In this document: positions 12,601 to 45,143 of the stretch, piece by piece
How the letters are laid out: each line of letters starts with the position of its first letter
How positions within the stretch are numbered: the stretch's first letter is position 1
Origin: Tubulanus polymorphus
Lineage: Eukaryota; Animalia; Nemertea
Length of the DNA stretch: 64,000 nt
Assembly (NCBI RefSeq): GCF_964204645.1
Contig: NC_134029.1
Span: forward strand, 8,768,850 to 8,832,849
Direction: 5' to 3'
Notes under the pieces: model-generated
The model's database searches: none
Told to the model about the DNA's origin: nothing
What the model saw: only the letters and a program-made list of their open reading frames with translations
Made by a program: the position numbers and the translations under genes

Positions 12601-15600
12601 GGTGGGTGCATCGGTCCTCCAGATGTAGCCATTGACGTCTTGGATAATGGTGACGATGAATTTCATGCCAAGATACGTCGTCGGTTTCGAATTCGGGAAT
12701 TTTACACTTTTCACCATCGATAGGTATGCACTCGTCCAGTCCATTTGATTCTGATCGGAATCGTCATTCGGTCCCAATGCACCGATAGGTAGAATCAATA
12801 CACTGTTTCCTTGTAGGATGAAAACCCATATATTTGTGAATTTCGGCGATATCCAATACATGTTGATCAGTTTCACAATGATAGAAATCGATTCCTGGAA
12901 ATTCTTCTGGCCAGTGTTCGATGAACCGTCAATGACGATGAGAAAATCGTAGCGTTCTTTCACTGTAAATGGATTGTGCCATTATAGATATTATATATTA
13001 TAATAGATTATATTAATATAGATAGGACATTATAGATATGTCCTATGCATGTTTAGGATCATTGTAATATGACGACGGATAAAAGCCTAGTTTTCAAGAA
13101 CGTCTTCTAGCCACGATAAAAACGCTCGTGAATTCAACATATTTGGCCTACGGGTAGAATCGCTGGCAAAGCAATCATACGGTGAGAAACCGCAGCGAAA
13201 ATATTATCTCATAAAAACAAACAAAGCAACGGTTCCCTGTCTGACAATTGCCAGCATTTGCCGTAATGAAAAGGCTGCGTTATTGTAATTAGATAGTTGT
13301 GAGGCAACCTTCCGCAAAAAACGTGTGTCTCTAAGATCTGCTTTTTTCGATTTTGCGACATGTTTGTGTTGCGAGAAAAACCGCTACATATTCGCCGCTT
13401 AAGGAATCTTGTAAAACCATGTTGAGATAAATACATCCTCCCACGGCAGGGATTCGAACCTGATGGCATCGCTACACTCAGCCACGGCACAAACCCCTCA
13501 GTGCCACAGTAGACCGGGTGCGCAGGTACATGCGCAGCTTTGCCGCACTTGCGGCACCAAACAGATTGCTCGTTGTATAATCGCTGAGGTAAATTTCACG
13601 GAAGAACTATAAACACAACTTGCCTATAAATGGGTTGGCTGACAATGACGTCATCTAAGCAACGCGTGTAGCTGCGCACTCGGTCTAGTGTGGCAGGGTT
13701 TCGTACCGTGGTAGTCTCGTGGCAGTCTCCCTGTCGGGGGAGGATGAGATACATAATGAAATGGTATTTCTACATACCTTTCTTTGACACGTCAACTTGA
13801 GCACCATTGCTTCCTCCCGCACCTCCTTTCGTTATCGTTTTGGCGGTTGTATACTCCGATGGTAGACTCATTCGATCTCCAGTAATTATACCTAAATGAA
13901 GACTCAGTCAAAATAATGCTGCTTATTTTAATGATACGGACAGATCATCGTATTAATACATAGACAAGGCGATTTCAAATCAAAGTTAAGGACAGGAACT
14001 ATCGAATATCAACGTTGATTTCAAAATATTTTCGATACCGGGGTTAGACTTAATCCATAACTGTGAAGCTTTACCAGAATTTGTTACCTGAATTTTTGAA
14101 TGGTTGGACTGAAAACAGAGAAACAGATGAAATAAATTTCAGATATCAACGTATCCCATCAGTTATATCAGTCTAAGGCATCGGCTTTCTAAATAAACGA
14201 TAAATCGCAGGCCCACTTACTTTGCATCACGAAATATCTCGAATCGATGAAATATTTGGGGGATTTCGGATACGGTTCTGAAACAGAGACATGTATTAGA
14301 TATGAATCGACTCCGCGTTTAAACGTAAACGACAATGGATTTCGTTTCAAAGCGATATGATATATTACGAGATTTGTAAGTTGTGACGCTCGATTTGATG
14401 TTAGAAATGATAGCGTCCGGTGAACCAGCACTTAAAGTCGTCTTAACTCCTAGGGTTTTGAAGAAAGCCGCGTTATTCGTTTTGCCAAACGGGATGTATA
14501 TCGGAAACATGTAGACGGATATGTATTTCGTCCACAGTTCGATCATCAGCGATCGCCACGACGGTTCTACCGGGGTACCGATATCACCTGCAAAAAATAT
14601 ACCGGTACATCGTTACCCAAAATGGAACATGTACTTCTTAATGAAAACAGTGTGCAGGCTAACTGACAGTTAGAACTCATTGCCGCAGCTATCAAGTCTT
14701 ATAAAAAATCCCTAAAATACGCTGGCTTTAGGGGCCACATTTTCCCTGAAAAATCTGCTTCGAAATCAAGTTTTAGAGTGAAAAACGATTCATATCAAAG
14801 TTGTCTTGATGCTTGCCTTGTTGTTATTTGGTATGGGTTAGAAAATGCAGATAATGTCATAGGAAAAAGATTTCGCTATAGTTAAATGCTGCTTCATGAC
14901 GAATTCCTGACCAAACGCTCTTCAATTTACCAGGTTTTATTTTGAACGAAAATGGTAACACTCACCAATAATGAAGAACAATTTCGTCACGTCCGTTTCC
15001 CTTGACAGAAAGCGTTGCAGTAACAGCATAGCCAGACTTTGCGTGGTAGCGTCAAAATTAGGCTCTGCGTTATCCTTGTAATGCAAATCCTTGTCTATTT
15101 GCTTAGTATACGCGTCAACGTAAGCTTTCTCTAACTTGTCTTCGGCTCCAAATTCTGGAATTAGTTGGACCATATTTCCGGACGCCTCAATGACAAGCAA
15201 ATGAACGTAGTTTTTGGAGATGAAGAACGTTTGCAGCAATGCCTTCACGAAATCATGCGACTGTTCGTAGACCTTTTTACCGGTAGCTTTATTGTTGCCG
15301 ATCAGAATAACTATATCAAGTTTCATCTTGGTACCATCGGCTACAAACAATATAATGGATATTACGAATGAAAAAAAAAGAAATTAGAAATTGATAGTTG
15401 AGATCTATTTGAAAATAGTGATGAATTATATTCTAAGTATGGAATGAATTATACGATCTGCACAGTGCCCAACTCATTCCTCGAATTACAACGAAACACT
15501 GAGCAAGACCAAATTTTCTTCTAAACGCAAATTGGACAGAAAAGAAACTATACCACCTTCAGTTTCCGCAGCTAAAATCCATTTCAAGGATCTTTGTCAG

Positions 15601-20106: not shown

Positions 20107-22678
20107 CTACGGGTTTAAGGGCCTGATTTTCATTTCAGCGCGTTTTAGTGAGTAAAAGTCCGATTGTTTTAACGTGTACCACACGGTACCGTCGGCAAAC
20201 GTCTGTCCTCCTCTGGAGTACCAGGATGTATGATAGACCCCGTTCAGGTTGCTGAAATAACAACTATTGTACCACCATCCACCCTTGTTGTCCGTCGCGC
20301 AGTTTCTCGCGTGCAAATCGTTGTCCACGTCCTCGGCGCTGAACGCCATATTATCGTGGTAACTCAAAGAGTCGCCGGCGTTACCTTGGTAACCGTTCAC
20401 GTGAATACGGTATTGGCTGACTTCATCGTCGATTAGGAAGTTCGTGTATTCCGCGTAAGCCCGATTTCCCTCCCAGTCCCACAGGTCGATGCGTAGCATA
20501 TACTTCTTCTGGTTGGTCAACTTGTACAGCATCTCGTTACCGATCCAAAATTCGTCGTACGGGTTTCCGAAACCGAATTTGTATTCCAACCAGCGCCGGT
20601 TGAAATTCAGCGAACCGTGAATGCGTCTCTGCAGAACCAACCAACCTGTCTTGTTGAACATCTCGCAGTATACGCTCTCCCACGTCGTCGAACCTTTCGG
20701 TTTGATCTGATAGACAGCCGGAGTCTTGTATCCGAATCGGTAAACATCGTGACAATCTGCAAAGAGTTAAATAAGGAATACTGCGGAATCGGTATACACT
20801 CTGCCTCACGGAAAGAATGGGACCCGCTATTAGAGGTATTATACATCATATGGACGTCGAATAAGCAGTGAACTGTGAGCGTTTACTACAGTTAACTGCT
20901 TAACAGCCAATATGATGCGCTGTGACATCAGGCGCATTACCAATAGTCGACCTTAAAGAACTAAATGCAGCATAGTAGAGGCCAAATATACAAGTCCAAT
21001 AAGAATGCCCGCTATCATAAATCGATAATCTGTAGACAAAATGAAATGACTGACGCATGAGATTATGTCACTTTTTATACCTGTTGCACAGTCATTTTCA
21101 CCAGTCTAAGGCCGATTTAGTTCTATAGCCAATCTAACAACTCGCTATGTTTTGGACCACTTCTGGACTGAGTCGACTGGACTGTCACGATTGTGGCCTG
21201 TTTCAGTGAATACGTCGTAACGCGTTCTTAAATCGAGTTGATGAGTGATAATATACATTGATAGATCGTTGCCCTCGCCTGTTTGCACGACCTCCGACGA
21301 TGATTCCCGAATCATATCTTACCTTGAGGTACATTTTCATCGGTAATATCCACAGCTGTTTTCGGCGCTCGTTTCTGGTTCGCATTCGGGTCTGAAATGA
21401 ATAATGATCGTCGTTGGAAACACTGGAGTGCGCATTTCGGAAACTTCTATTAATCAAAGAAGATACGAATGGAAGATCAATTGAATAATGCCCACAAAGG
21501 GGAATTTCGTAGAATATTTTGAAGTACGAAAAAAAGGATTTCGAAAATCGGAGTTTGAATTGCTTGTTTGACACGGGAGAGCACGTATGATGCACGTAAG
21601 TGTATGAAGTAATAGGTTATACGCACTCGGCCGGTCAACGGGTATAGTCGTCATGTTGAAGTCGTTATCATTTCCTCCGATTTTGATGATAGCCCTTTGT
21701 AGGTACGAATTTTCGTAACGAAGCAACGCCAGCTGGTCTTGAATCTTCGAATTCGACATGCGAATCCGTGTTTGCAGTCCGCGAAGATCTTCGATTTCCA
21801 TGCGCAGCAGGTTTATGTTTCGTTTGATCTCGTCGGTGATGCCTTGTTGTTCGCTCTGCTGCAACTTCATCGCCGTGCCTTGCGACAGTATCTCTTGTAG
21901 CGTCTCTTTGCCGGAATTTTTGAATTTCACCATGTCCGACTGCAGATCGCTGTGGGCCAGCGTAAGCTGTTGGATGCCGCGTTGAAGGTCTTGGATCTCC
22001 CGCTTGATCAGAAGCCATTCGGCTTTCAAGTCGCCTATCTCGTTACGGAGTGAGGCGAACTTCGTCTGCAGACTGTCGGACTGAACTTTGAGGTCGTCCC
22101 CTAACGAAATCAGCTGCTGTTGTCCGTCGGTGGTCAGGGTAGCACCGTCGCTACCTGGGCTAGTTGCTCGAGCCTTCAATTTTAACTTGTCTTGCTTGGT
22201 TTCTAAAGCGAGCAGCTAATTAATGGAAAACATATCATAAATATCCTGCCAAACATAATGCCATCTTATTCTCACGTTAGGAATTTACATGTCGAAGACG
22301 GACTGGCTATAGGAGCCAACGAACAATTCGTAAACCTACCTTAACTCGAAGTTCTTGCTGGTCGATTCTCATCTTTACCGATTCGAGTTTATGTTCGAGA
22401 ACTTGCTTCTCGACGTGATGCGTCAAATTCTTCGACTGCAGCAATTCCCTGAGCAGCTCGTTCTTGAAGCGATATAGCTCCTGCGTAAAATACGAAGATA
22501 TGTTGCGATCTCGGATGTCCATCGCTTCCAGGCGTCTGGTGACGTCTTCGTTCGGTTTCCACACGTGGAAACTGTACACGCAATGTTGCTGGTCGTTCGA
22601 AGTGACGGCTACGGCACCGGTAGGAGCCCACGCCACTAAGGCCCCCGAAAGAAATATCGGTATGATAGACAGTAGCAT
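20107..22678 (-). CDS. Angiopoietin-like / fibrinogen-related (FReD) secreted protein, 548 aa, 4 coding exons
   Basis: Exons 22678-22340, 22215-21627, 21391-21323, 20756-20107 (1647 nt, in frame). Signal peptide MLLSIIPIFLSGALVAWAPTGAVA, a CVYSF motif, long heptad coiled coil, then a C-terminal FBG domain (PQDCHD, VYCEM, GWLVLQRR.HGS.NFNR.W.EYK.GFG, EFWIGNE, GGWWYNSCYFSNLNG, SLKRAEMKIRP). Confidence 0.92.
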
Positions 22679-24009: not shown

Positions 24010-25310
24010 GGGCTTAACGCGTCCATTCAATCAGTTTCACGATGATCTCAGAATCGAGCAAATCCGTTTCATAACATATCGTATATTCATTGGCCAAGGC
24101 ACTGATGATCATAAGTGCTTACATCAGTTGAAGAACCTCTTCGGTTTTAGCACTAGTTCCGATCGAGGTCGGAAGTTTACTCTCATACGAACCCAATTGC
24201 GCAGTAAAGGCGTAGTCTTACGTTGCTGGTGAATTTCATTTGTATTCATGCAAACCCAAAACTGCGAGAAACATCTACGAATTAAAAGACCAGATCAGTT
24301 GAACGTTAAAATCACGACTTCGCATCAGGATCATGGGGCATACTTATGTGCAGTCATCGCTGCAAGGCGAGTATTTAAAACTGCGCAAGTATTCCGTGAC
24401 TTCAGTACATATTCGTAGTCTTAAACGTTACCGAAACAAATAGAGAATATACTCACATTTAACCGAACATTTCATCTAATGGCTCAGAATTTGGGAGAAT
24501 TTATCAATGAAAGTGCGTATAACCTTAATGGGATACTGGCAACAAAATACCGGGTTATCCGTAGTGAAAATCAGTTTGTTTTCGATGAAATTCGAACTTG
24601 ATTTTGAAGATTCAAAATCCGAAAGTTCTCACTCAGTTTATCGTATTGATTTCACTGAAAATTGATTAACTAATCGGATAAGTTGACTTGAATTTATGTA
24701 GAAGAAATTGAAGCGCAGTGTCACTAGCGATCCTTCCGGATTATGGCCCAACCCTCGCTTCCCTCAGTAACCTTGCCGGTATCCCATTGTCTGTAATCTC
24801 AACCTGTGCCTTTATCTTATTTGTTATTCGTAGTGATGTACGCCTTGACTGCGCAAGCGACCAGCGATCGCATAAAATGTCACACTTGATTTTACAACCG
24901 AGAATCTAATATCACGCGATTTAATAAACACATCAGGGGTTTTGTTTTTCTGGCAAATGGCCAACTACAAGCATACAAGTATCATGTATATATTTCAGAT
25001 ATGCGTGGCTCAATATGTTGTTAGTGTAAAAAGCAGCATATCTGACTCTCAGCGAGGAATAAGAAAGAAGTGTTCAGCATTTCGTGAACCGCAAATCGGC
25101 TAACGGCAGAAAGTGCTGATATTACTTTCAAACACTACTTTAAAAGTTTATTCAAGTTACTCTATGTCATAAAATACTAGTTTAAATGTGACGTCTAGAA
25201 ACAAAGTTACCTATATTACTACCATAAACATTATCAAACGTCTCTTAATATCTACCATATACACTAAACTCAAGCTTATTACTCATAATGGAGAAAGTTT
25301 CGACACCGTT

Positions 25311-25568
<258 letters not shown>

Positions 25569-25905
25569 GTAGTGATATAGTCGTAAACAATTTTAAAAAC
25601 GTTAAAATTGTCGCCGTATTTTCATCCCTGATAAATGAACGACCAGTCCTTCACGGATCCTCAGTCATCAGCACTTCTAAATAAATAAATAAATCTCCCT
25701 TTTTCGCCCACTCCCATCATCTTATTCGAAACTGGACTCATTTGTTTTCTGTTGTTTCTAAAATCATCGTTCACCCTTCCATAACTAGACTATTACGTAT
25801 ATGTTTACAGATCACAGACAAATCGGTAGGTTTTGAATTCAGCCGTCACCTACGGTCCCGTTTAAACCCGTTTGATTCCGACAAGACGATCGCCCGCCGT
25901 CCAAC

Positions 25906-28900
25906 TCATAACTGCGTATACAAATGCGTGTGATACAGATCGGAGTTCATAGCCGGTAAATTCGTTCCCAAATGACACGGGCTGTTTTGTATGACGTGAT
26001 TGTGATGAGGCGGTTGCGTTGGGACTACTTCGTGGATGAGATCGGCGATTTCCTGGCGTAAACCGGTCACGATTTCTCGTTTCAGGTACTCCAGTTCGGT
26101 CTGCGTGAGAAACGTACCGGACGTCGACGTGGGCATCGTATTTCCGATCTCGCTAGGCGGCGCCGGTCCCTGCATGTTGCTAGAGCGCAGATTTCGTAAA
26201 ATGTCCCTCTTCAGATTGTCAAGGTGACCCGTAGCGCGTGCTGCCTCGCGCTTCCTGTCCTCCCTTAATTCGTACCTGCAATTAGATCCAGCATGATTTT
26301 CGGCATGATATTCCACGGACACGGTCAAAACACAATTTCAAGCTACGTGAAGTTCATTAATGAATCATTTTCACTTCTTTGTGTTATTAAGTCTACTAAC
26401 ACGACTTAAGAATATCTCAAGAGTTTGCTTTCTGTTCAAAAAAGCCTATGGGAAATCCAAGATATTACAACTTGGTTGTTTCATGTAGAATTACACCCAT
26501 AATGTTATTCCCCGGAGTTTTGAAAATTATTTTCCTCTAAGAAATCAGTTCAACAACCGTTTTACCAGAAACTATGGTGGCTGATTCGGGCCATAATCGT
26601 AATATGTCACTTTTTCTTCTCCGTATTTAATTTTCTTTTCCTTTCTTTTATAGGACTGCTTTCTTGTACAAGCGAACATTCGCATCAAAGCAGTCCTTCG
26701 TCTATAACGTAGTATTACATTTCTAATGCATTTGTTTATTCACTTATTCCGTTAACATTTTACATGAGAATAAATGATATCGTATCATACCATATGATAT
26801 CGTACGGTACCTTAAACTGGATATATCCTGTTTAATTTCCAGTAGATCGTCTTCATTGACGCCATCTTGTCGCAACTGTTTCTTCGTCTGGTGTATGTAC
26901 CTGCTCACAAGGCGTCGCATTACCTCCTTTAAAGAAAAACAGCACGCGACGTTGAGCACCGATTCAATCATGCATATAGTTACAATGCGCCGGTGTGGTA
27001 TCGATTATTTCGAAAAAAGAGCGCAGTACATAGGGGACCTATTAAGAGACACGTTTTTCCGAAAGAACGTTAGATACATTTATACATCTTAAGGATGGGT
27101 CAAACGTAATGACGGGGAAGCTTAAGATCGATACAACGAACTTTTCGAAAGAAAAGCTTGCCGATCGTCGATTGCCGTTGCCCAACTACGGGTAGTTGTG
27201 TGATCTTATGAGTATTTGTCAGAGCAATATACTGTGGATTCTATCAGTGTCTTTTACAAAAACAACAATAGAAAACATTGTAGATATGATTGGCCACCTT
27301 TTGAGTCTGCATCCGTCACAGCGATGCGATGTATACCGTTTGCCTACCGAGCCCCGGAGGTGAAATGATGGAAATATTCTTTTCTTTTCGTAGGAACGAA
27401 AACCACTACATTTTATATGGTGAAAAATATATTCCTTTCGTGCGAACGAAATAATCTATTCGCGGGAACGCATTGTATGACACGGTGAACTAATATTAGT
27501 CGTTTCATTAAAAATAGTTTTGTTTCCTGGGGAATGGTCATCATTTCAAAAATTCCAATGTAAAGATTATATCGTTCCGACGAAAATATACATTTTCACC
27601 CCACACGTCACCTACGCGGGGCTCCGTTTTTACCTGATATATTTGTCGTTCGTTTTCTTTCGCTTGCTCGGCCAGGTCTGAGTTCGGTGAGTTATTCGCC
27701 TGAGTCAGGTTGATCGCGCCGCGCGCTGCTGGTTGACTTTGTTGCGGATGCACAACGTGTCCATGGTGACTATCGCCATTGTAAGTTGGTCTCTGTAACA
27801 ATAACAAATGGGGAATAATAAAATACGCTCAGAGACCACGATAACAGGAAATGATTATTTTCTCAATTACACCATTCGCTTTGATTTTCATTATATTTGC
27901 TATATTGCCGCGGGTACCAATGCCTAGTGGTGGAAAAATATCCCCGGTATAAAAGTTTCATGGCAGAAATCCCCGTCTAACATCTGACAGGTAAAAAAAA
28001 ATCCAACTGGTAGAAAATCCCACAACTCCGTTATCTATCAAACCTAAAAGTTATTGATTCATAATCAATATACCCCGCCCAAGAAGCTCGTTTTTTGCTG
28101 CCGTTTATCTGTCTGCTTGTTTATACGTAAGGAATTTTTTCCGCACGTCAGCAAGTGCCCTTAAAATACAAGATTACTCTTGAGTAAAAATAATTTATTT
28201 TCAACGGCCATTCTTGGTTAGTAGTTCGATTCTACAGACCGAGTTTAAACGATCGAATTAAATCAACCAACTCGAAGAATCAAAATATTGTCGTTAGAGC
28301 AATTATTCCTTTAAATTTATTAATTTTGATAAGTATTCTTGCGAAATTCAACCTGGGGGATTTCTACCAAGGAGATATAACCTTGAGGCTCGCAGCGAAA
28401 CGACGCACCGTAAACTTTTCAAAATACATTCGTAATTTATAGTCTAGTGTAGTCTAGTCTAGTCTAGTGTAGTCTAGTCTAGTCTAGTGTAGTCTAGTCT
28501 AGTCTAGTCTAGTCATAGTCTATACCCAGCTACGCAAAAAAATACCGACCAGTGACCGATCATCAGTACTTTCAAATCACATCCATAATAAATTGAACTA
28601 AAATAAACCACCAAGTTTAACTAAGTGTCGAGACCAGGGTTCACGGTTCCTCAGGTTAAACTGAACAGCGTCGTGTTGTTTAAACGGTTGCGTTTCAGAA
28701 CTGACGAATCTTTTCGATAAGAATCTGTATCAAAAGTTTTTTGTTCTTCACACATCATTGGACTACGTAATTTTCGAAGGGGTAAACCCGAAGTTAGACG
28801 TCCATCTGGTGGAAATATATCGAAAGCGTTGAAGATAATACATATACGAAATATTTGGTGATATACAGATTATAGAAGATATCTGTTTGATACCGCATTG

Positions 28901-31900
28901 AACAGTTCAACGTGATATGACGGTGCAACACAGGTAACAAGCAAAACACAATATCATATAATGCAAACAAAAATATACAATAATTCAGCTATTAGAACAG
29001 ATCGTTTTTGTAGAAGTATCATCATTATCAATAGCTGCTTAAATATGCTATGCATGCCTCGCGTCAATGTGGTTTTAGGTTCATTTTCGGAGCAAAGCTC
29101 GCTAGGCATAGAATAGTTGGTTATCTAGATTCGGTGTTAATTAATTGATTCGCGTTTCAAGCCAATCGGAATGAATAGAACGTCTCGTTGTACACGCATA
29201 CAACAAAGTGTTTATCTAATGTATATGCGGATAATATCCGAGTTCAATCGGAGAGCAAAAGACTCTTTGATAGGGATGGTGATTTGCCGTGAGGAACGAC
29301 TTCAGAACATTTCTACAGAAAGGTGATAAAAGTAATACACGGAGAAAGTTTTTGAGGCTGGTGGCTATTTTCAATTTATTGACAAAGACAACGAGTCCCA
29401 CACCTCTATATCAAAAATGACGACGAACATACAAATCTTTGCTGGAATGTAAATAGTCATAGCATAGCTAGAAAGCAATTCATGTACAATAAGAGCTTAG
29501 TAGTTTCATAAAGGGGAGGGGAAGATAATCGATATAACACAGTAACGTTACCGAACCGAAACCAGTCCCTGTCTTCATATCAGCTTGGAGTACTCAGTCT
29601 GATTACTCCAGGATATGAGTGAATGAATGGAAGTGTAACCTGGATGACACGTCCATGTTCCTGATCACCTTCTCAGTGAAAGAGTGACAGGGAGACACTG
29701 CCATCATCGTGATCTTCACTCCCGAATACGGAATAAAAGAATACAAGTGATAAGCGTATGTCGGCGGTGTCTTTTATAGAATTAGACAGATGGAATAGAA
29801 GTTGCGTATATCTTGTTGAAACAAAAAGAAATATCAATAGCGTTAAGCCCAAACCGAACAGCAATCTGCCACGACGTTAGATAGAGAAAAATAGCATCCG
29901 CAATGTGTTAGAGAAGCGAGAAAGTAGTGCAAAATATAAATATATACATCTATTACCTGGATCTCTACATCTTTACAATTCGTTATCCCATCAGCTGTGT
30001 TCGCCTAAACATAGTTTAAATTGTTCACGTTTACCATTTAAATTTAATTTATTACAGTTTCCAAATAACACCCCGATCAATTCAGTAAATCCGCGCCAGG
30101 ACTCGAACCCAAACCTAGGATATAACGTGATGGTTAGAGTGAAAACGAGATTGTCGTCTGTTTGGCCAATTATTCCCAAATGACAGTTACGATATCAAAG
30201 ATAAATAATTAGCTGTCACCGTTGTTTTCTGGCAATTGTGAAAACGTACCACACGTTTACGGCAAAACCTTGCATATATTTGCACACTACCATGAAAACA
30301 AACAGCTTCATTCGTCAAAATCTATGATCTGGTTACACCATCACGAAAATGGAAATCAACGTGCGCGGGAAATGTTAAATGTTTTGCTAAGATAGTGAAA
30401 CTTTCGATAGATCGCTCGGATCAAAGTAAACAGAGGCAAGTTTAATAGACTGTTTATCTTAAACCCGGGGTTAACTCCTTCATTTTCAATCGAGTTAACC
30501 CCAGGTTAAAGTTGATTAGACAGTCTATAATACCAGTCCACGGGATTTTATGGAGTCTACGATCTTTTACGGAAGCTTCGTGTAGAACTAGGGGGACTGT
30601 CCACGTTTTAGACCGTTGCAAAAAAGCTCACCTTAATCGTGGCTTCGTGAGATTTCCGACGAGCTTTCTTGCGTTTCTTTTTGCCCGTCATACATTTACA
30701 GAGCAGTCTCTTGAACGCGCGCAGCATGTAATAGACGGACTTAGGACTGATGATAATGTTGAACGGAGACGGCAGCGTTGAACCTTCGTCGAAGTATCCC
30801 ATCCATAACTTCGATCTGGCGAACTTCCACTCGCGATCAGCGTGGTCCTGTGTTGGTATAGCAGCGTAAGGAGGATAAATTTCGTAAGAAAAAATTGTGT
30901 AGGAATAAAATCGATTTCACTGCTGGTCGTTCATATGTATTGTGTATTATCATCGGATGAAAAATACAATGCTCATATATACATATGGATCTGTAAGATT
31001 TATAATTTGATAATTTATAGTATTGTGATTGATAGCGATCCAAAATACTCGAAGATATCAAGGAAGAATAATCATATGAAATCTGAAATAGATAATTAAC
31101 GATTAACATTTTCTATATAGTCAATCTATAAAGTAACGACACGGTACAACAATCCCACGTACATGCAAACATGCTTCTATCATATATAATTTTGTCCTCG
31201 ACTATAGGTTAATATTTCTGAGTATATCTCATCGCAAGGTATACGTTGCCAAATATTGTTGCATTTGCAGCATGCTAAGTGCAGAATAGTGTTATCATGA
31301 AGTTATCATATTTGGAATAGATGTATAGAATATGCGCTTCGTGCAGAATCTTAGCCGTCCGTCCGTGGAACTGTCGAAGAATGTTTTCTAATTTGTTTTT
31401 TCCGGAATATTCACGACGAATAGGAAACGATTTAGAATATATACAAGTATTACATATAACATATTTGTTAATCAATATTACGGTATACACGTATTTAGGT
31501 AAATTAATCGTTCTCGATGTATTTCCAAATACACATGTACGTTCGAATATCCCGAGGGTAGAGTTATATTTTTTGTTATGAATATTCCGGATTATGGTCT
31601 TACTATGGCCGCATTTTACCTCGATCGCCTGGAACGAATCGCTCATCATGGCGATTAGCATATTAGTAAGGACCGTGATACCGATCACGTGGTATGAGCC
31701 GAGTAACAACTGGCCAACCGTTTTAACGTACACTGATTCGCTAATATCTAAACTGCTTAGATGAGTAATACCGAATATTGACCAGAACAGCTGTAGAAAT
31801 GTGGAGTCTAATCTGTAAAGAGAATTTTAAGCTTACGTACTACACACACAGAAAGCCCAAGACGACAAGTACATACACAATGTTTGGTGCATATCCTCGC

Positions 31901-34900
31901 TGACCAATGTTTATCTCGGTCTGATGTTTCGTATGAACACTATAATGGTCACGCAACTATGTGCTTTTGTCAACCCGTGATGACGTCATTTGTCATCCCG
32001 CGATGACGTCATATCGCTGCCAAACACACTGTCAGAGTAATTTCATCAGATCTATACGGAATTTCTAAATCCCTAATGATGACGTCACATACAGCAGTGA
32101 TCTGATGTTGTGCAAGAGCCGTTTATTTTGACCCCTACTATGGTTATCACGTGACAAGAGCACATGGCAGAACAACCGACTTATTTTGAAGATAATATCG
32201 AAATTTCAACCATGGTCGAACGAGGTAAGCAAAAAACAAGCTGGGACCGAAACCTGCCAAACAATCGGAAAGCCTGATTGAGTGAGTTATGTAATGAATG
32301 TCGAGACAAATTTCGTCTCGGGGTTATTCTATACAGATTATCGTGAGGACCCTATAGTTGTGGCGTGGCCACATTGAGAAACCATGGCGTTAACTGAAAA
32401 AGATTTGAAATATATGTTCCCTGTAGATAAGGCTTGTACCTATCCGTGAAACGAGGCATTATGAATTATAGACATCATCACATAACAGGTCGTCCAGCAT
32501 CGCGTTGCATGTCGAATGAAATGCCTTCTCTTTCGATAACTCATCAATCAGACAGAGTACGTAAAATCATTCATTCACCGAGAAAAGTCAATGACATCGA
32601 AACAAGTATATATACATATCTAGACACCGCCTAGGGCTAGGAAGCGAGTGTTATATCACCATCAAGCTACATAAAACAACAGGAGGGTAAACGTTCTTTT
32701 AAAGGCACTTAATCGTTCGTTATAGCCGGGGTATTTCAAAAACGATAATATCGTCAATTGTTGGAGCTAGAATGTTATAAGTATACGTGTGACCTCTCGT
32801 ATTGAAAACAAAGTTAATGAAGCCTATTGATGACGCTGCAATGTTTCTGTTGTAGTCACTCTATACGCGAACAAAATTGTGAAACACGTTTTGAGGGGAT
32901 AAAGCTGGGCATTGATACACTTACGTTGTTGCTCGCAAGCAAGCGATCTCAAGGGGTTAACTTCCGAATGTAGCAAATGAAATCGGCTAATCCTATAAAA
33001 GAATATATTGCTGCGACGGTGTACTATAGCTTTTTCAAAAAATATCCCCCAGAAACAGCGCTATCGGGAACCGAGTGAACCACGAGAGCAGAAAGTTTTA
33101 GAATCAACATTACGGTAGACCTATCATTGATTTACTTCCTATTCTGACGAAAAACATTGTTTCTATAGGCGATTCATTTGAAATGTGCAACTCATGCTGC
33201 TTCGGTTATCAACATAACGGAGAAGGAGTAAACAGTGTGCATGCATTTTACGGATAGACAGAGAGTTAACCCCCGGGTAAGATAGCTATTTGAATAATTA
33301 TTTTGTGTACATTTTCTCTTCCTTTAAAGAAAATGTCTCTAAAGTCATTAAGGAGACACTGTGGATAGATAGATAGATAGAGAAAGAGAGGGCCGATTAT
33401 ATTTTTGTAAATTGGCTTAGAGAGTTCGGACGGGCGACTTTTGATAGGACACCTTGCGGGTAACAACATCTTTAGAATATGCATCGGCGCCCTTGCCTGC
33501 CAGAAAGTAAGACGCAGAAGTACTCCGGTGTGCAAAACGGATATTCAAATCATACCTTACATACAAATGAGGAAACTGGCAGGCGAGGAGGCAAATCTAC
33601 GTCTAAGATATAATATGCCAATATAGTATATTGATTATCGACCTTCAATCCAGGAATCCCATCAGTGTAGCTAATGAAACTTTTAACCAGGAACTTTTTT
33701 CAGAAAAAAATAGGCCATGACGAACACATCTGGTGAAGATCGATAGAACCTACATCTACCATAGAATATAAACGTGTAATATCGCTCAGTTTTAGATGTG
33801 TTGCTATATACCTCTATGGTTTGGAAGGAATTTGACATCATAGCTATTAACATATTTATGAGGACGATGATGGTCATTCCGTGATACAGTATGAACATAA
33901 GCTCCCCGATGAATTCCGGGAATTTTCCGTACGACGACGGGTATTTGTTTGGGTTGTTGTTGATCTTCACTTCCGAGCGATGGGCCAAACCAAACAGTGC
34001 CCAAAATAAAGTATGGAAACTCGATGTCAGTCTGTATAAATACAAAGAAGGTTGCGGTGTTTACATATATATAATATAGAATATATGAAAAATGGGTGGT
34101 TAGTGTGTGGGTCAATGGCTAGCGTCGAGCTTTCTATGTTATTTTGCTAGGCTTTGTCAGTCTCGAATGAGTTTGTCAAAAAGGATGGCTGATGAGGGTC
34201 GAACGAATATTGCCTGCATAATTAAATGACTGTACTATAAAGAGAATCCCACAATAATGACGAAAAAAGTCCGAAAATGTTTCCTTGAGCTAGTAGTTTA
34301 TACAACGTTTCGACTATAACCTTAAAGCCATCTTCAGGAATACTGGGTGTTTCTGAGCATCTGAAGATGACTATAGGTCATAGTCGCTTCGTTGAATAGA
34401 CTACTAGCCCAAGGAAACATATCTTCGGACTTCAATTTTTCGTCATTATTGTGTGCATCTCTTTAAAAATTATCGTCATAACACTGATATAGTGTAGTGT
34501 TTTATCAATCCTAAAAAAATGGTTGTACGTTTCTAAAAAAGAACGGTTCCGTCTGCCACGAATCAGCCACTCTATATTTGCTAGAGATTACCACTTTAAT
34601 CGCTGGGACAGAAAATACGAAAAGTCTCTATTTGAATTGCATGCTTAGATAGAAAATTGAACCCTGAATTTATCAATGTACCGTTCTAGAAAAACAAACA
34701 CGAGCGTTCGCAGTTTCCACGATTTAAAGTAAACACAAAAGCCCGACGTGCGTCACGTTATGTACAAGCGTTGATCGATGAAAGAAAAAAGTGCATGCAA
34801 TGTTCGGTTTATACTGAAAAACAACACTGACCGTCTCTGAAAATAATAATAAAAAGTACACATATAAGAGTCTGTTTCTGAGTCTGATTTTTGGGCGTCG

Positions 34901-37900
34901 AAATATCATAGAACGAACAAAACGAACTCGTTTTCAGAGCGTTGCACTTGTATGAATACATAATACACGAAAATACGCGTCACTCGCTGTGGATCCTAGC
35001 CCTATAGTGTCTGAACAGAGTAACATACCTCGATCGACTGAAATGAATTGGACATCATTGCTATCAACATGTTGAGCAGCACGATAATTGCCATACCGTG
35101 ATACACGATAAACAACGTTTCCCCGACCTTTTCCGGGAAATCGTAAACTTTCTGGTGCTGTGAGCGGTCCGGCGTGATATAAATATCTTTGCGCAGTCCC
35201 AGTCCAAACAGCGACCAGAACAGCGTCACGAAACTGGAATCCAAACTGTGGATGCAAAACATAACACACACCGTCATGTAGATAGATTGCACGAAAATCG
35301 AAAATCATTATTACACTTGTTTGAAATATTTTTGGCCAGTTTTGTAAGAATGGTAACCTTAGATTCAAACAGGGGGCTAAATCAATTCATTTTCAATTGA
35401 GTTAGCCCCTGGGTTAAAGTTATTACCAGTCTATGAAACCGGAACCGGGAATATTTGGTTCAGTCACGCGCGCGCATATCAACCAATCACGTGATCCCCG
35501 GTGACTAGTTGAGTCCAGATGCAGGGCGAACCTCGGTTTTCGTAGCTAGTCGACTAGTATGTTCGGAACTAATAACCGAACGCACTATAGTTCGGTCGTA
35601 ACGCATTTCACAGTGTCGGCCATCTTGGAAATATGTCCGAACTACAGCGACCGTGCTCAATCCCGCCGTCGACATTCTGAATCTGCCATTCGGTTTCACT
35701 TAGTTCGACTATAGTCCGATAACCGAAGTTCGCACTGAGCCCAAGTTATTCAATCACCTGACGCCACTATATCAACTAGTTTGGAGTCAAACTGCCTCAA
35801 TTAGCATTCGAATTGATTATATTCTAACTCTACACCAAAGATTCGCGTTGAAATCGGATAGAATAACCATTTCCATGAATGATGCACGTTTGTTAACATT
35901 GAGTCGTAAAAACTGACTAAGTCACCGTTGAAATGCGTTGTATGATATTGCGTTTAATGAACACAATATCGCGATGTATAAAAGAGAAGAGGAACGTTTC
36001 AAGGTTTTGTTTTCATTTGGTTGAACGGTTGACGTTTGATTGGTCATCGTCAGATACTAAAGGTTTAACGTTTAGGGACACTCGTGGGGAAGATAGCCTT
36101 CTTGATATACACATCAAATCCCAAATATCTGTCTTCTAAACAAATTGCATTTGTTAAAAATATCAGATTACCTGGCTGAGTCTATTCGCTAAACTGATTG
36201 GAGTTATCAGTGGAATAATATTAGTCGAATTGAGTGAAAACTGGTCCCAACGTGTTAATGTCACCGATATTTAGAATGTTTGTTTCCGCGTGGTATTTTA
36301 GCACGCATTCTATTTCAATTTGATATTTCGGTTACATACTATTTGCTCGTGTTTTTGATGAAATATGGTACAGCCGCCCTTATTATACAGGGATATATCA
36401 CTGCAACACGAATACATCCAACGTCAGCTTCTCTATCGAAAACTGATCAGTCACTTGAAAGAAGTGATTCATTTAATACTGAAGTAGCAGAGATGTCACT
36501 TTTAATTCTAAGTTAAGAGCCGTTAAATCGCATGCAAGGGATTCATAAAACCCTCGACGTTTTAAGTCCCTCATCAGCATATCGATTTATTCAGTTATCT
36601 ACATTTCGAAAACGCTTCGAAATTATTATCTTGATTTTGACACTATTTAACATGATATGGATTCATCTATTCTGTCAAAACGAATGCAAAAGAAGCCGAA
36701 AAAACCTATGAGAGGATAAAACTGTGATACAGCAGCATCTGACATTGGGTATAGACGCCAGTGTGCAAACTATTCAATTCGAATCTAAATCCATTTACTA
36801 AATCTATCATAATAGGGGCAATAAAGCTAGCCTGTAGTATTCACTTTTCATCGAAATCAAATGATACAATTTATCGGTTATATTACGGATTATATGTCAT
36901 TTCATAAGATTTCCGCTTCAATACAAGTAAAATGTGTTTGTTAATTGTAAAATAAACTTGTGTTTTTAATGTACCATAACAGTTTACGGGAACCAATATT
37001 TCCTCAATGATTTGCGAGATTCATGGCGGAAACAATTTGAATTGGATTTGATAATGTTTTGCTTAATTTCATAGGATTTGATATTTTCTTGCTGAATAAA
37101 ATCTAATTGAATTTGCAATCAAAGCGCATGGCTAATTAGCATATCACACTCATCCGCTCCTACGTTGCCGACATGAAAGAAAAGTGCCTCCGTGGTTCTG
37201 ATTGGCTGGTTGCCTATGAACTCAAGGGCGGCACCACCAGATGGACAACCGGGAATCGCCTTTTATTTTCTGTTCCAAAAATGTCGATGGGTAACATTCG
37301 CACATCTTTGTTTTACACAACCCTTGCATTAATTTTCAAAAACAAAATTTCTATGGTAAAATCAGTAAAGTCATACTCCCAAGAACCAGATCAAATTAGT
37401 ATTTCACGACAATCGAACTTGAAATAAAATTCTCAAGGAGTGAAGAAGTAGACCGCCGTGGGATTGCATGAACACCTGCTGATACGTGAAGCTTACCCAA
37501 TCAGAGAGGAGACATCGCTCTCCGATTGGATTTTGGAACTGGTATTTTCTAGATTCAGATTTTCGTGAAAACCCCCAGTGCAATATAGCCTTGGCCTTTT
37601 TCAAAATTCGGAATTGATCTAGGAATTGGAGTATAGATAATGATGAAATGAATGATTTCAGCGCATGATATTGGACGTCAGGCGCCGTAGTTTACTAGTC
37701 CAATATGACGCACGTGGAACAATTCGTGTGACGCCCATGCACTATCCCTATAGCAATAGACTCAATCCATGGCCTAATAGAATGGTATTAAATCGCTTAC
37801 TGAATGTGCAGCTAAAAGATAAACAAAACCTAAGAAAATACTCATTGAAAAAGGTTGGGCGGAAACCTTTTAAAAAATGATTTGAAGATAGTGCTCAAAA

Positions 37901-40900
37901 TGTCACGCATGCGGCTGACTGCGGAAATGAGAAATGGCCACGACTGCCCGGTATCAAAGAGTAATCTCCTTACTGATAGGATTCATTTTTAGAAAAAAAA
38001 ATGTTAACTCCAATTTGTGATTAAACACGAAATTGACGCGGTCTTATCACCCGTCGCGTGATACTGGTATTACTTACTCGACGAAACTTGAGTCGGTTGA
38101 GCTGACGTAGTAGAAATACAGTTGGTTTAATCCACAGGCGAAAGACGTCAAAACAAGGAAAAATATCAACAGAAACTTGATAATGTCGATGAGCATGCAA
38201 CCTAACGATATTTGCAGTGGACCCAAATGTGGATTCGCTTGGAACAGGTAGATAATCCGCGCGAAGCTGAACACGTTCGCTACGGCGAACAGACCCTCGG
38301 AGATGATCGTCGGGTCCATGTCGGGCCATTCGGATCGGGGCATCTCTCCGCGTCCGAAATCTGCATCCATGTAGTGAAGTTGTATGTAGGCTACGATCCG
38401 CAACGAGAACGTACATAAATAGAGCGATAACATGATAAAATCCATCCAGTTCCACCACTGTCTGATGTACGCTCGCAGGCCTTCTTCCCATAGTTGTTTC
38501 ACTTCGGCCCACACAAAACCTTCAAAAGGAAAATAAGAAATGCATTGTCACATCATTCAAAACACGTTTCTTTTAACTACGGAAGAATCCTGGAAAATGA
38601 CTAGAAATATTTCGAGTTTGGTTGTAATTCGGAACGGAACGAAAATCTCGTTGGTTTTATGAACTATTTTTTCAACAAACTGTCCCTAAAACTGCGGCAC
38701 TCCAGAAATAAACACGAAAGAGCATTTCTTATTTCAGGAAATTTGTTTTGGTTGTAATTCGGAACGGAACGAAAATCTCGTTGGTTTTATGAACTATTTT
38801 TTCAACAAACTGTCCCTAAAACTGCGGCACTCCAGAAATAAACACGAAAGAGCATTTCTTATTTCAGGAAATTTGTACGAATGAATGTACAAATCCGTCT
38901 ATAAAACAGCCTAGATCGAAGGCATACACATAACAAAATATGTCAGTTAATCCAATGTCAATTACAATATATTTCAAAACCTTTGCTATATAACAAAAAG
39001 TACATGTGTACATAATCATAATGGAATGAGGGTGAAGCAGTTTCTATCCTTTTGTTACACAGAAACTTAATTTGTACTTACTGCATGACATATATTTTTG
39101 TGTTAACAAGTTGCAGAACTGAGTGTACACAACTTAAAATGATTTTTTTGGAGGTCGCAGAAATCCTTCAATTTTCGACAATCCTTGTGTTAGACAACCA
39201 AACATTTTGATACCTTTACATGGAAATTAATAATATGAATTACTTAAGACAAAATTTACTTACCTAGCACCCATAAGACAATAAGCCACTCTAACGCATT
39301 GGGCCACGGTCCTCTTATTTTAGAGCGAGCTTGGATATCTCCGTTTTTTACGGCCACGGTGGTTGACATCAATAACAACAACACTAAGAACACGGCAAAC
39401 GACGCACTATGGTACATAAACTTCATGAATGGACTTCGCAGAAGTTGGCCTACGCGACTTCTTGGAACGGTAAGATATATCAATACTAGAAATGGTAATA
39501 TACACGGCAGTCCGATACATATGGCTACTTTCATCACGGTGTTACGAGTTCTCCAGCCAGGCAAACCTTCGTACCAGATCGACGTTAAAAGCTGTTGACA
39601 GTGCGGGTGAGCTACAAACTAACGAGAAAGTCATATGTACAAACATTGCATACTTATTTGCAGTTTAGGACATGTCGAGTTTGCATGGAGTTATTTCAAG
39701 CGAAAGAAAGACAAACCCTTTTCAGAGCAAGGACACCACCAGAATCTTTAAGTGGGGTCCAATATCCTGAATTCGAGAGGGGGTTGAGGAGCAAATGGCA
39801 TCAAAATTGTACTTTTCGTGATAACTTAACCAGATGAAACATTATTATATATATTATGACCTGAGATCTGACTGATCGAAAAAAGTATCTCTTATTAGCC
39901 GTAAATTAGTCACTTATTCATCCTTCACCACGTGTATGAAGTTTGCATACAACCCGCAGTGGTGCTATTTATGATGTTATACCTACAATATTTGTATACG
40001 TTGTTCAAGTTTGTATCAATTTTTCTTTTATATGCTGATTTAATTTTTGTAAATCCTCTTTGTACCAAACGTTTTGGTTAGAGTGTAATAAACTATCTTA
40101 TCCTATCTTATCTCATCTTATCTTATCTATTCCTTCAGGATGTCCAAAACATTTGAAATGGCTATGTTCCTTTAACGTGCCTCTACGAAACACCAGAAGG
40201 GTTTGGCATACGGAATGGTCATAATCATATTGCAAATCAATTATATCACTCAGACTGATTTCGAATTGGAAATTTAGGTCTTCCATTCTGCGGCTTATGA
40301 TACATTAATATTCATGTCTGCGCAACGCTTCCGTAATCTAGGAGATTTTCTCAACTCAATCCTTAGCCTTCCATCCTAAAATTTGCAAATTATCACAATA
40401 TCGTATGCCTTTATTTAGACGTTAATTTTTAAGGATACCGAACTTAAGATACGAATATGGATATTGACACCAAATATCGGTAAATCATGAAGTTTCGAAA
40501 ATACGTTGAACCACGGCCATTACGATGATTAGATATCGGTGCTAAAACATCAGAAAAAAATGTATAGCCGGTTTTCAGACATCGACTTGATATTTAATCC
40601 AAAAAGCCGGCAAATCGAGAGAATTCATATCCGGTTTCCATAGCTACGTCAAAATAAACCTCTTAGCAAATTTGCGCAAGAGCTTCTGACGGACGTAAAA
40701 CTTAGCCACCGACATCCGGATTTTTAACACGAGTTAGGCTATTCGAACGTGCCACCGCGAATCACTGTTCGAATCCTTAATGCGTCAAGGGATGACGCTT
40801 TGCAAACGACAAGGATGATATGTAAGAAAGCGTTATTCAAAATAGGTTGCTACATAATGAGATAAAAACCCACTACGTACACATAAAAAGATTTTTTTTA

Positions 40901-43900: not shown

Positions 43901-45143
43901 TCCGAGTTAAAACATTGAAAATGAACTAACTACTCTAACTCACAAATGTGGAACTGGGTCCAGACTTTAAACTTAAACTACAGTCGATCGTACGGTTAAT
44001 GATGTGACGTCACAGTGTCGAATTTTGAATTGAACCATAAGTTTTGACCATTAGTTGACTAAGGTCTAAAAACTGAGGACCGCCGAGTAATGGTGTATGG
44101 AATAAGAATGACCAATATCGATATCATGGATATCCAAATAAATCATCGATATTCATGGAATAACTCATAAGAATGTTGTGTCAGCGCATACGTACCTGTT
44201 TTTGTTCATATTTCAAAGCCAATTTCAGGCGTGCCAACGTCAACTTATCGGTATCACCATCTTCCTCGTCGTCGTCCTCGTCATCTGACTTGTCGAGAAC
44301 GGCTATAACCTCTTCGCTGCTGCGACACTGATCCAAAAGATCGCACGCGTACTTTTTACACGATTCGGCGAGTTCCGTGTACGTATCTTTGAATTCGTTT
44401 TCTTTCATCGCCAAGCGCTGGAGTTCCCAGGATAGTCTGAAAGCGGTGAGGATAGGGTCGGCGCTTGTCAGCGAGATCCACGCCGGACTGGCCAAAGCCC
44501 TGAACGTGTGGATGCGCAGCAGCGAATGTCGCAAACTGTCCTCATTCACCTGGTCCAAGCAGCGTTGGCAGGCGCACGACAAAGTGTGCGGATTTTCTAT
44601 CTTCGCCCCGCGAGAAAGGAGAAGTTGCAATATTTCGAATTGGTTACAAGTGGCGGCTAGAATAACCGGCGAGATATCCGGGGAATATTCGTTACTTTGC
44701 TCGGATAGCGGTTTGGATTTCGACCATTCGAACCCTAACATTCCTCGACTTATACTGGGGTGGTCAATCAACATCTCAACGATTCTATACACGCCTTCTC
44801 GTATGGCGTACAAAATGGCGTCGCCAATTTTAACACCCTCTTGTTTGAGTAACAGTTCGACGATTTCTGTATTTTCATTATCGACGGCGATTTGTATGGC
44901 AGACCGGCCGAGTATATTTGTACAGTTGACATTGACGGGACTCGGGCCTTGTAAACACCTGATCATCGTGTGCTTGTCTCCCTTCTCTGCAGCCTCCAGG
45001 AAAAGCCGCTCGTGCGGATCCATCCTGTGGCCTTCTTTCAACGGTTCCAACGGAATGGGAACTGCCCGTCCCGAGCTTTTAGAGCTTGAACGCATTGGGC
45101 GATTTCTTTTGCTCCCGCGGAAGTCAGGAGCTAGATTATCCAT
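25906..45143 (-). CDS. TRPC: TRPC-family (canonical transient receptor potential) cation channel, 932-941 aa depending on pore exon
   Basis: Exons 45143-44196 (ankyrin repeats, H..C.C..C Zn motif), 39618-39264 ([11 protein letters not shown], pre-S1 to S2), 38519-38078 (S3-S5), one of 35245-35029 / 34031-33812 / 31812-31620 (pore + S6), 30847-30632 (TRP box [15 protein letters not shown]), 27792-27634, 26926-26811 ([15 protein letters not shown]), 26275-25906 (ends LYTQL). All junctions GT-AG and phase-compatible. Start context GCCACCATGG. Confidence 0.95.
28440..28521. repeat. (TAGTC)n pentanucleotide microsatellite with TAGTG variants
   Basis: tagtc/tagtg units repeated about 16 times. Confidence 0.95.
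31620..31812 (-). CDS. TRPC: TRPC pore/S6 alternative exon C (193 nt)
   Basis: ttacag|[65 protein letters not shown]|GTAAAA; phase 2 in, phase 0 out. Confidence 0.9.
33812..34031 (-). CDS. TRPC: TRPC pore/S6 alternative exon B (220 nt)
   Basis: atacag|[74 protein letters not shown]|GTATAT; phase 2 in, phase 0 out. Confidence 0.92.
34238..34465. mobile_element. Palindromic Penelope-like element with degenerate hammerhead motifs, between TRPC pore exons A and B
   Basis: Inverted arms of about 100 bp; minus 34342-34299 TATTC CTGAAGAT GGCTTT aaggtt ATAGTC GAAAC GTT GTATA; plus 34361-34398 CTGAAGAT GACTAT aggtc ATAGTC GCTTC GTT GAATA. Confidence 0.6.
35029..35245 (-). CDS. TRPC: TRPC pore/S6 alternative exon A (217 nt)
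   Basis: ccacag|[73 protein letters not shown]|GTATGT; phase 2 in, phase 0 out. Confidence 0.92.
35522..35737. mobile_element. MITE-like element upstream of TRPC pore exon A
   Basis: cagggcgaacctcggtt ... aaccgaagttcgcactg inverted ends, with internal actagt/actatagt palindromes. Confidence 0.55.
38618..38876. repeat. Perfect 130-bp tandem duplication in TRPC intron 2
   Basis: ggaacggaacgaaaatctcg...caggaaatttgt occurs at 38631 and 38761 with no visible mismatch. Confidence 0.93.
40841..41095. mobile_element. Palindromic Penelope-like insertion with minimal hammerhead motif and 13-bp target-site duplication
   Basis: Direct repeat AATAGGTTGCTAC at 40841-40853 and 41083-41095 flanks an imperfect inverted repeat; minus strand 40974-40931 reads AACAC CTGACGAT GATCTC tagggt GAGATC GAAAC ATC CTGTT. 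Confidence 0.7.
41322..41703. mobile_element. Second copy of the element with inverted tRNA-like ends
   Basis: Left end tcctccctcgacaaggattcgaacc...cagccacggcacgaaaccc; right end ggtttcgtaccgcgg...caggttcgaatcg...ggggagg; core shared with 13436-13744. Confidence 0.65.
43867..43961. mobile_element. About 100-bp MITE, possibly PIF/Harbinger-like (family also at about 839-925, 18764-18880, 22942-22980, 53880-53967, 63144-63247)
   Basis: TIR GGTCCAGTTCCACA ... TGTGGAACTGGGTCC; at least six recognisable copies. Confidence 0.75.
44196..45143 (-). CDS. TRPC: TRPC coding exon 1 (ankyrin repeat domain, Zn-binding motif)
   Basis: FLEAAEKGD...[66 protein letters not shown]; donor CAG|GTACGT. Confidence 0.95.

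Follow-up and report, generated by a model that had tools for sequence, protein, structure and literature searches.

The closest described parallel to the gene studied here is found in NALCN, where exons 15a/15b and 31a/31b form tandem, mutually exclusive pairs that encode the pore helix and selectivity filter and run into S6; such pairs occur across invertebrate phyla, are absent from the usual model animals and have more than one origin (Senatore et al. 2013, PMC3557258). More widely, ion-channel genes are recognised to have duplicated exons in tandem time and again (PMC3342872). Here we describe a TRPC gene of the ribbon worm Tubulanus polymorphus, on the minus strand of a stretch of 64,000 nucleotides (the window; contig NC_134029.1, positions 8,768,850 to 8,832,849), in which three tandem exons, A, B and C, each encode the pore helix, filter, outer loop and S6. 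As in NALCN, tandem-duplicated either/or exons cover the pore helix, filter and S6. The two systems differ in that NALCN is a four-domain channel with a two-way choice at one filter residue (E/K) in one domain, whereas the Tubulanus TRPC protein is tetramer-forming, the choice is three-way and the whole S6 is exchanged; the filter glycine is unchanged, a lipid-site residue is swapped, and mixed tetramers are possible. In our judgement it is probable that these three intact, long-selected exons, of which likely one is spliced per message, yield three channels with a shared sensing scaffold and a predicted difference in outer-pore charge and lipid pocket.

Other splice choices are known that touch the pore region: the insect nicotinic receptor alpha6 has the three-way choice of exons 8a/8b/8c, and snail Cav3 has exons 12a/12b, which alter the pore region. 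Both belong to other channel families than the Tubulanus gene, and pore splicing in TRPM3 uses alternative donors rather than duplicated exons. Drosophila TrpA1 has mutually exclusive exons, and those named are choices of exon 1 and exon 10, not of the pore (PMC11471635). A duplicated TRPC pore exon does not appear in passages of PMC13483504, PMC2865541, PMC7143563, PMC6137742 and PMC3342872. None was found in full-text searches of the wider literature, most subscription papers and supplementary exon lists excepted. A study by Bandyopadhyay and Payne from 2004 reportedly described a Limulus TRP of 896-923 residues that comes nearest to a C. elegans trp gene; its pore sequence is said to exist in alternative forms, and a C-terminal deletion to occur as well. 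Such an account would cover a two-way choice in the cDNA of a single species and would not extend to genomic structure, phylogenetic spread or function. Horseshoe-crab proteins of the clade to which the Tubulanus gene belongs have 921/894 and 923 residues, with an isoform carrying a 27-residue C-terminal deletion. We think it fairly likely that two pore variants of this clade have been in print since 2004. The original prediction that a three-way TRPC pore cassette is undescribed agrees with the literature found, but its novelty is tempered by the published pore-swapping pairs of NALCN (PMC3557258) and by the probable two-way variants of Limulus.

The proposed positions, lengths and minus-strand orientation of the three exons were borne out: A occupies 35029..35245 (217 nt), B 33812..34031 (220 nt) and C 31620..31812 (193 nt), each preceded by CAG and followed by GAG|GTA. 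They lie between the constitutive S3-S5 exon (38078..38519), which spans S2-S5 and ends in phase 2 at GA|GTAAGT, and the constitutive TRP-box exon (30632..30847), which begins in phase 0 and encodes EWKFAR. Exon A is the form in the RefSeq model, B is unannotated and has A as its closest relative, and C, also unannotated, has an Asp following the gate serine. The motifs needed a correction in C, which reads LFWSIFG together with a 15-letter motif not spelled out here; coordinates and splice borders held. The introns around the cassette measure 772-2832 nt and are all GT-AG. When seven exon peptides were compared with the window by tblastn, the pore peptides matched one another (E 1e-25 to 7e-13), with protein identities of 60% for A-B, 47% for A-C and 42-44% for B-C. 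As had been claimed, no other exon in this query set is duplicated: for the ankyrin, S1-S2, S3-S5 and TRP-box peptides the best second match had an E of at least 0.17, the four 3' exons lying outside the set. A fourth pore exon did not turn up in the window. A, B and C are neighbouring homologues that share their phases and keep both splice sites, as expected of mutually exclusive tandem exons.

Each exon has a length of 1 mod 3 and is open in frame from the phase-2 donor at 38078. In scripted joins of all eight subsets, three read through, all of them single-exon (A or B or C), and these continue into the TRP-box exon from 30847 to 30632; the remaining five (none, AB, AC, BC and ABC) hit a stop, and the stops lie upstream of four later exons. 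Thus, as far as the sequence itself can tell, mutual exclusivity is forced by the frame, as the original prediction held. The introns are too long for steric hindrance, with 997 nt between A and B, 1999 nt between B and C, and the putative branch site of B (CACTAAC, approximately 34099..34105, ~74 nt before the acceptor) close to the exon. Pairing of docking sites was sought in this one genome with 250-nt flanks: the best upstream pairing (-20.1) lies within the range of 12 shuffles (-22.0 to -18.9), and the best downstream pairing (-19.1) within that of 20 shuffles (-24.9 to -17.7). A three-way inverted-repeat pattern was not found in 30800-38100, where the longest repeats belong to a high-copy element. 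Since the phase is 2 in and 0 out, the GT-AG introns are long and docking pairing is no better than in shuffles, we infer that exclusivity would come from regulated splice-site choice together with nonsense-mediated decay of wrong combinations.

The copies are old. Pairwise comparison of A, B and C over 51 alignable codons gave a proportion of synonymous differences (pS) of 0.86-0.93, which is saturated, and a nonsynonymous divergence (dN) of 0.17-0.40, the pattern of purifying selection on each copy and in line with the predicted synonymous divergence with kept motifs. Of 3000 simulated runs of neutral drift at 0.5 changes per site, 7-11% left a single exon without a stop. None of the 24 listed non-repeat allelic differences falls in an exon, which is weak evidence because the differences are clustered and five further rows lie outside the list. 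Contig depth in a DNA run was 30.8 for C, 33.9 for B and 37.2 for A, close to the 37.4 of the constitutive S3-S5 exon, so each is present in one copy. In the same run A, B and C lie on separate contigs, C together with the TRP-box exon on one of them, and the C-B stretch is covered by overlapping contigs; contigs of three runs cover the introns without splice joints. Exons A, B and C are thus real, old and under selection. The claim of one gene with old, selected copies, one usable per message, stands, but the RefSeq record holds only the A form.

Some 200 nt ahead of exon B, at 34238-34465, the A-B intron also carries a high-copy element whose inverted repeats are nested, with arms of 46 and 30 nt. 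Its contig depth runs to tens of thousands, and one contig skips 34217-34471.

As regards the identity of the gene, the S3-S5 exon peptide is 100% identical to a 956-residue RefSeq protein of Tubulanus polymorphus (P0002 in our set), which matches ten segments of the window and carries A as its pore exon. The predicted protein has the Pfam domains of a TRPC channel (Ank_2, 1e-11; TRP_2, 1e-26; Ion_trans, 2e-28) and the TRPC hallmarks, namely a six-helix Ion_trans domain, an LFW pore helix and the EWKFAR TRP box, and every one of the 34 PDB matches reaching E<=1e-30 belongs to TRPC1/3/4/5/6 or TRP-gamma. In a backbone tree of 43 rows, built by a quick method with the pore unit removed, the gene adjoins Lineus (98), and the two nest in a clade of 27 rows with a Shimodaira-Hasegawa-like approximate likelihood ratio (SH-aLRT) support of 99, separate from TRPC3/6-like and TRPC4/5-like sequences. 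The members of this clade are nematode, onychophoran (Eka-Trp1), arthropod (trp-1), mollusc, annelid and deuterostome genes, the names being those given by the sequence sources; one of them, P0118, carries no such name in its source and is presumably C. elegans TRP-1. No Drosophila or vertebrate protein is among the best 120 matches listed for the gene. The tree thus places the Tubulanus gene in an invertebrate Trp1-like TRPC clade.

What the three exons change was mapped by direct alignment to solved TRPC3/4/5 chains. The F-G of the filter is identical in all three, and the equivalents of TRPC4 I617, N621 and Q625, which are lower gate residues (PMC7017149), are I, S and Q in A, B and C alike. 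The original prediction of a different selectivity filter and S6 gate in each exon was therefore overstated, the filter glycine and the lower gate being common to A, B and C. The broader idea of different pores keeps its footing not in the filter or the gate but in features that do vary: the outer loop and its charge, the third residue past the filter glycine, and the lipid-site residue of S6. The outer loop has 26 residues and a net charge of +1 in A, 27 and +2 in B, and 18 and -1 in C. The third residue after the filter glycine is His in B and C and Leu in A, where it is uncertain because the A loop aligns to TRPC4 in two ways; this position (TRPC3 E630, TRPC5 N584) sets calcium permeability (PMC7565274). 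With no acid there, each of the three would be a cation channel of weak calcium permeability, and the differences between them would be of degree. The position of TRPC5 E598, in the outer pore, holds Glu in A and B and Lys in C. This E/E/K exchange lies outside the filter, and an acid/lysine exchange of the NALCN type at the filter was not found. At the position of TRPC3 G652, A and B have Ile and C has Gly. G652 is part of the L2 diacylglycerol site of TRPC3, and Ala there blunts activation by endogenous lipid (PMC9253791). With the filter and gate unchanged and this residue swapped, the choice of exon may affect lipid gating no less than selectivity; lacking the NALCN filter exchange while swapping the lipid-site residue, the cassette would be a NALCN-like switch of a different kind. 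A and B may form one functional class (Ile at G652, Glu at E598, long basic loops) and C another (Gly, Lys, short loop), C being the likelier diacylglycerol-responsive form.

The alternative pore unit is not confined to Tubulanus. We examined 20 clusters of orthologues, with at most 15 members listed for each, and four clusters hold two versions that differ solely inside the pore-S6 unit, with no difference outside: the acorn worm Ptychodera flava X1/X2 (XP_070554377/8; 31 differences), the scorpion Centruroides sculpturatus X1/X2 (XP_023238515/7; 40), the crab Eriocheir sinensis X2/X3 (XP_050695273/5; 36) and two annotation versions of one gene in the spider Parasteatoda (37). These pairs resemble the Tubulanus gene in the unit exchanged, in its protein-level borders and in the either/or choice, and differ from it in number, since each has two versions whereas the Tubulanus gene has three and its annotation one. 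Isoforms from Eriocheir, Procambarus, Portunus and Argiope additionally show an optional outer-turret segment of 9-15 residues that immediately precedes the pore exon. Arthropod units fall into two types. At the G652 column, type 1 has Met in 11/11 units and type 2 Gly in 16/16; at the E598 position, type 1 has Glu in 11/11, and type 2 has Lys in 9/16 and Asp in 4/16. A contrast of small and bulky residues at G652 is present in four of five duplicated sets, those of the window, the arthropods, P0243 and Ptychodera (Ala/Leu), and is missing from P0242 (Leu/Leu). The Gly-type exon occurs alone, among the members listed, in the chelicerate sequences P0047, P0063, P0065, P0078, P0061 and P0084, which are second gene copies in scorpion and spiders together with tick and horseshoe-crab models; it is possible that the two pore types were sorted after gene duplication in chelicerates.

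Both arthropod units stand in tandem in 2 of the 120 listed models (Penaeus monodon P0076 and Ephemera P0114). A profile of A, B and C was run against 1.84 billion representatives, and 15 of the 150 matches listed have several matched stretches, ten of which are two distinct units; the other five (P0241, P0256, P0266, P0281 and P0345) were discarded, their stretches being partial repeats, one identical repeat or a match that had been split. Three of the ten belong to the Trp1-like clade, two to another TRPC branch, two are TRP-gamma-like and three NOMPC-like. The Trp1-like ones are P0242, which groups with echinoderms, P0243, whose first unit groups with leech, and P0244, of spider type. As most of these sequences are frames that apparently read through introns, they are evidence of tandem copies and not of splicing. 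The three-way pore-exon cassette of Tubulanus, unannotated but real, belongs to a clade that has two-way versions in several phyla.

The spacing of some of these units is short. The tandem TRPC pore units of P0245 (a cluster of 8), P0246 and P0242 are ~13-25 codons apart, unlike the long introns of the Tubulanus cassette, and are candidates for steric exclusion. Two near-identical pore-S6 units are found in the TRP-gamma/TRP-like sequences P0251, P0395 and P0313, and the spacer of P0251 is only ~12 codons, short enough for steric exclusion. The NOMPC-like P0247, P0289 and P0326 have two different tandem pore-S6 units; the best PDB match of P0247 is NOMPC (E 2.5e-26), and P0326, a moth model, bears the name TRP-gamma in its source. 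These units are candidate alternative pore exons of the mechanosensory TRPN channel, a feature of NOMPC/TRPN for which our literature search found no description.

With respect to the history of the exons, A and B are sisters in two trees (97/83 and 85/87). C groups with arthropod type 2 at 89/68 and 83/77, a grouping flagged as long branches meeting, and all seven Gly-type rows or groups share one branch at 62/82 only. At 11 sites fixed between the arthropod types, C agrees with type 1 at six, with type 2 at two and with neither at three. This weak grouping and the split of the 11 sites speak neither for nor against deep homology. An ambulacrarian group (98/92) contains both exons of Ptychodera and both units of P0242, the latter as sisters (97/88), so the exon was duplicated independently several times. 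The Gly exon is first in arthropods and last in the Tubulanus window and in P0243. We read this as a module, phase 2 in and phase 0 out, that was copied repeatedly; an older pair dating from the protostomes is possible. In such a scheme A/B would be a younger duplication, B being a younger variant of A, and C would have split off earlier, perhaps as long ago as the two arthropod types.

Several observations weigh against three spliced and functionally distinct channels and against an ancient pair. The two-way alignment of the A loop is one. In addition, 16 of the 20 clusters have one pore version among the members listed, including three Lineus isoforms and all molluscs examined, and the RefSeq isoforms are automatic gene models. 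The RefSeq cluster of P0002 has one member, of exon A form, leaving B and C without a transcript record. The invariance of the filter glycine and lower gate means that isoform effects may be small. A bulky M, L or I occupies the G652 position in 43 of 67 aligned units of the clade; a bulky residue is thus the norm, and the mammalian result may not carry over to the putative lipid gating of this clade. Tree tests are compatible with a local single origin of A, B and C (approximately unbiased test, p-AU 0.135 and 0.118).

Among the alternatives, the one that survives best is that all three exons are spliced into near-equivalent channels, the copies being kept by partitioned use among tissues or stages and their differences being tolerated drift of the loop. 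This accords with the sameness of the filter and gate residues, with a loop that varies freely among single-exon lineages, and with repeated duplication of the exon, also as near-identical pairs (P0242, P0251), as might be expected of a mutational hotspot. We nevertheless regard it as rather unlikely, because each of the two arthropod types is conserved across crustaceans, mayflies and chelicerates while differing from the other at fixed sites, and because four of the five duplicated sets pair a small with a bulky residue at the lipid site. That only A is used, with B and C as silent pseudo-exons, appears improbable. The annotation does give only the A form, the donors of B (GTATAT) and C (GTAAAA) are farther from consensus than that of A (GTATGT), and no C-like protein came up in word-index searches, which are a weak method. 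On the other hand, silent leftovers would hardly show, in every one of the three exons, saturated synonymous sites and low dN together with an intact frame, two splice sites and a length of 1 mod 3; moreover, a consensus branch site precedes B, the pore unit is alternative in gene models of four other species, and the allelic differences, for what their clustering allows, avoid the exons. It is very improbable that double inclusion or skipping is itself the regulated event, with frameshifted messages destroyed or giving truncated dominant-negative subunits: all five non-single combinations do stop upstream of later junctions, but such a use would not maintain the protein motifs that B and C show when read in the productive frame. 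Finally, a misassembly, or leftovers of distinct genes in tandem, can be largely discounted, for although no single contig of the runs used spans the whole stretch, the copies are too unlike as protein and in their flanking introns, which do not align with one another, the depth is that of one copy, the C-B contigs overlap and four other exons have no second copy in the window.

The reading we prefer, of three alternative pores on one scaffold, would have practical value. The natural isoforms would differ only in a pore-S6 module of 64-73 residues on an identical scaffold, a ready chimera set suited to asking about the roles of the outer loop and the lipid pocket; they swap the equivalent of TRPC3 G652, a residue used in engineered point-mutant work, the kind through which lipid sensing and calcium permeability of TRPC channels are studied. 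The cassette was apparently missed by genome annotation and by catalogues of invertebrate TRP genes, in which one pore is counted per gene. It is tempting to go further and speculate that invertebrate TRPC and TRPN channels have exchanged the whole pore-S6 unit by splicing since ancient times and repeatedly, a design that has gone largely unnoticed. In the Trp1-like genes, Gly and bulky exons inherited from a protostome or bilaterian ancestor would toggle the diacylglycerol pocket, so that one gene yields a lipid-gated and a lipid-insensitive channel; the ribbon worm would have added a third pore, with mixed tetramers of graded gating as a possible outcome. We offer this extension tentatively, as a doubtful one.

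The remaining coding exons of the gene, all on the minus strand, complete its layout. The first (44196..45143) encodes the ankyrin repeats and the TRP_2 domain (residues 1-316), as supported by an exact match to P0002 and by Pfam, and a constitutive exon at 39264..39618 encodes pre-S1, S1 and S2 (residues 317-435). Downstream of the TRP box follow a short C-terminal exon (29957..30004, residues 727-742) and a further C-terminal one (27634..27792, residues 743-795), both matched by P0002, a rib-helix/coiled-coil exon (26811..26926, its 3' border approximate) and the last coding exon with the stop (25906..26275). The intron before the S3-S5 exon contains an exact tandem duplication of ~120 nt at ~38620-38870, spotted by eye, and a long run of AT dinucleotides (25250-25570) lies directly downstream of the gene. 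A neighbouring gene at 20110-22215, on the minus strand, encodes a fibrinogen C-terminal domain (Pfam 1e-64) as well as a coiled-coil region. Farther along the same strand, at ~8000-15400, several open frames resemble von Willebrand A domains, with one weak Pfam match below the cut-off (E 5e-4), and a repeated Pro/Ser-rich segment lies near 10600-11500.

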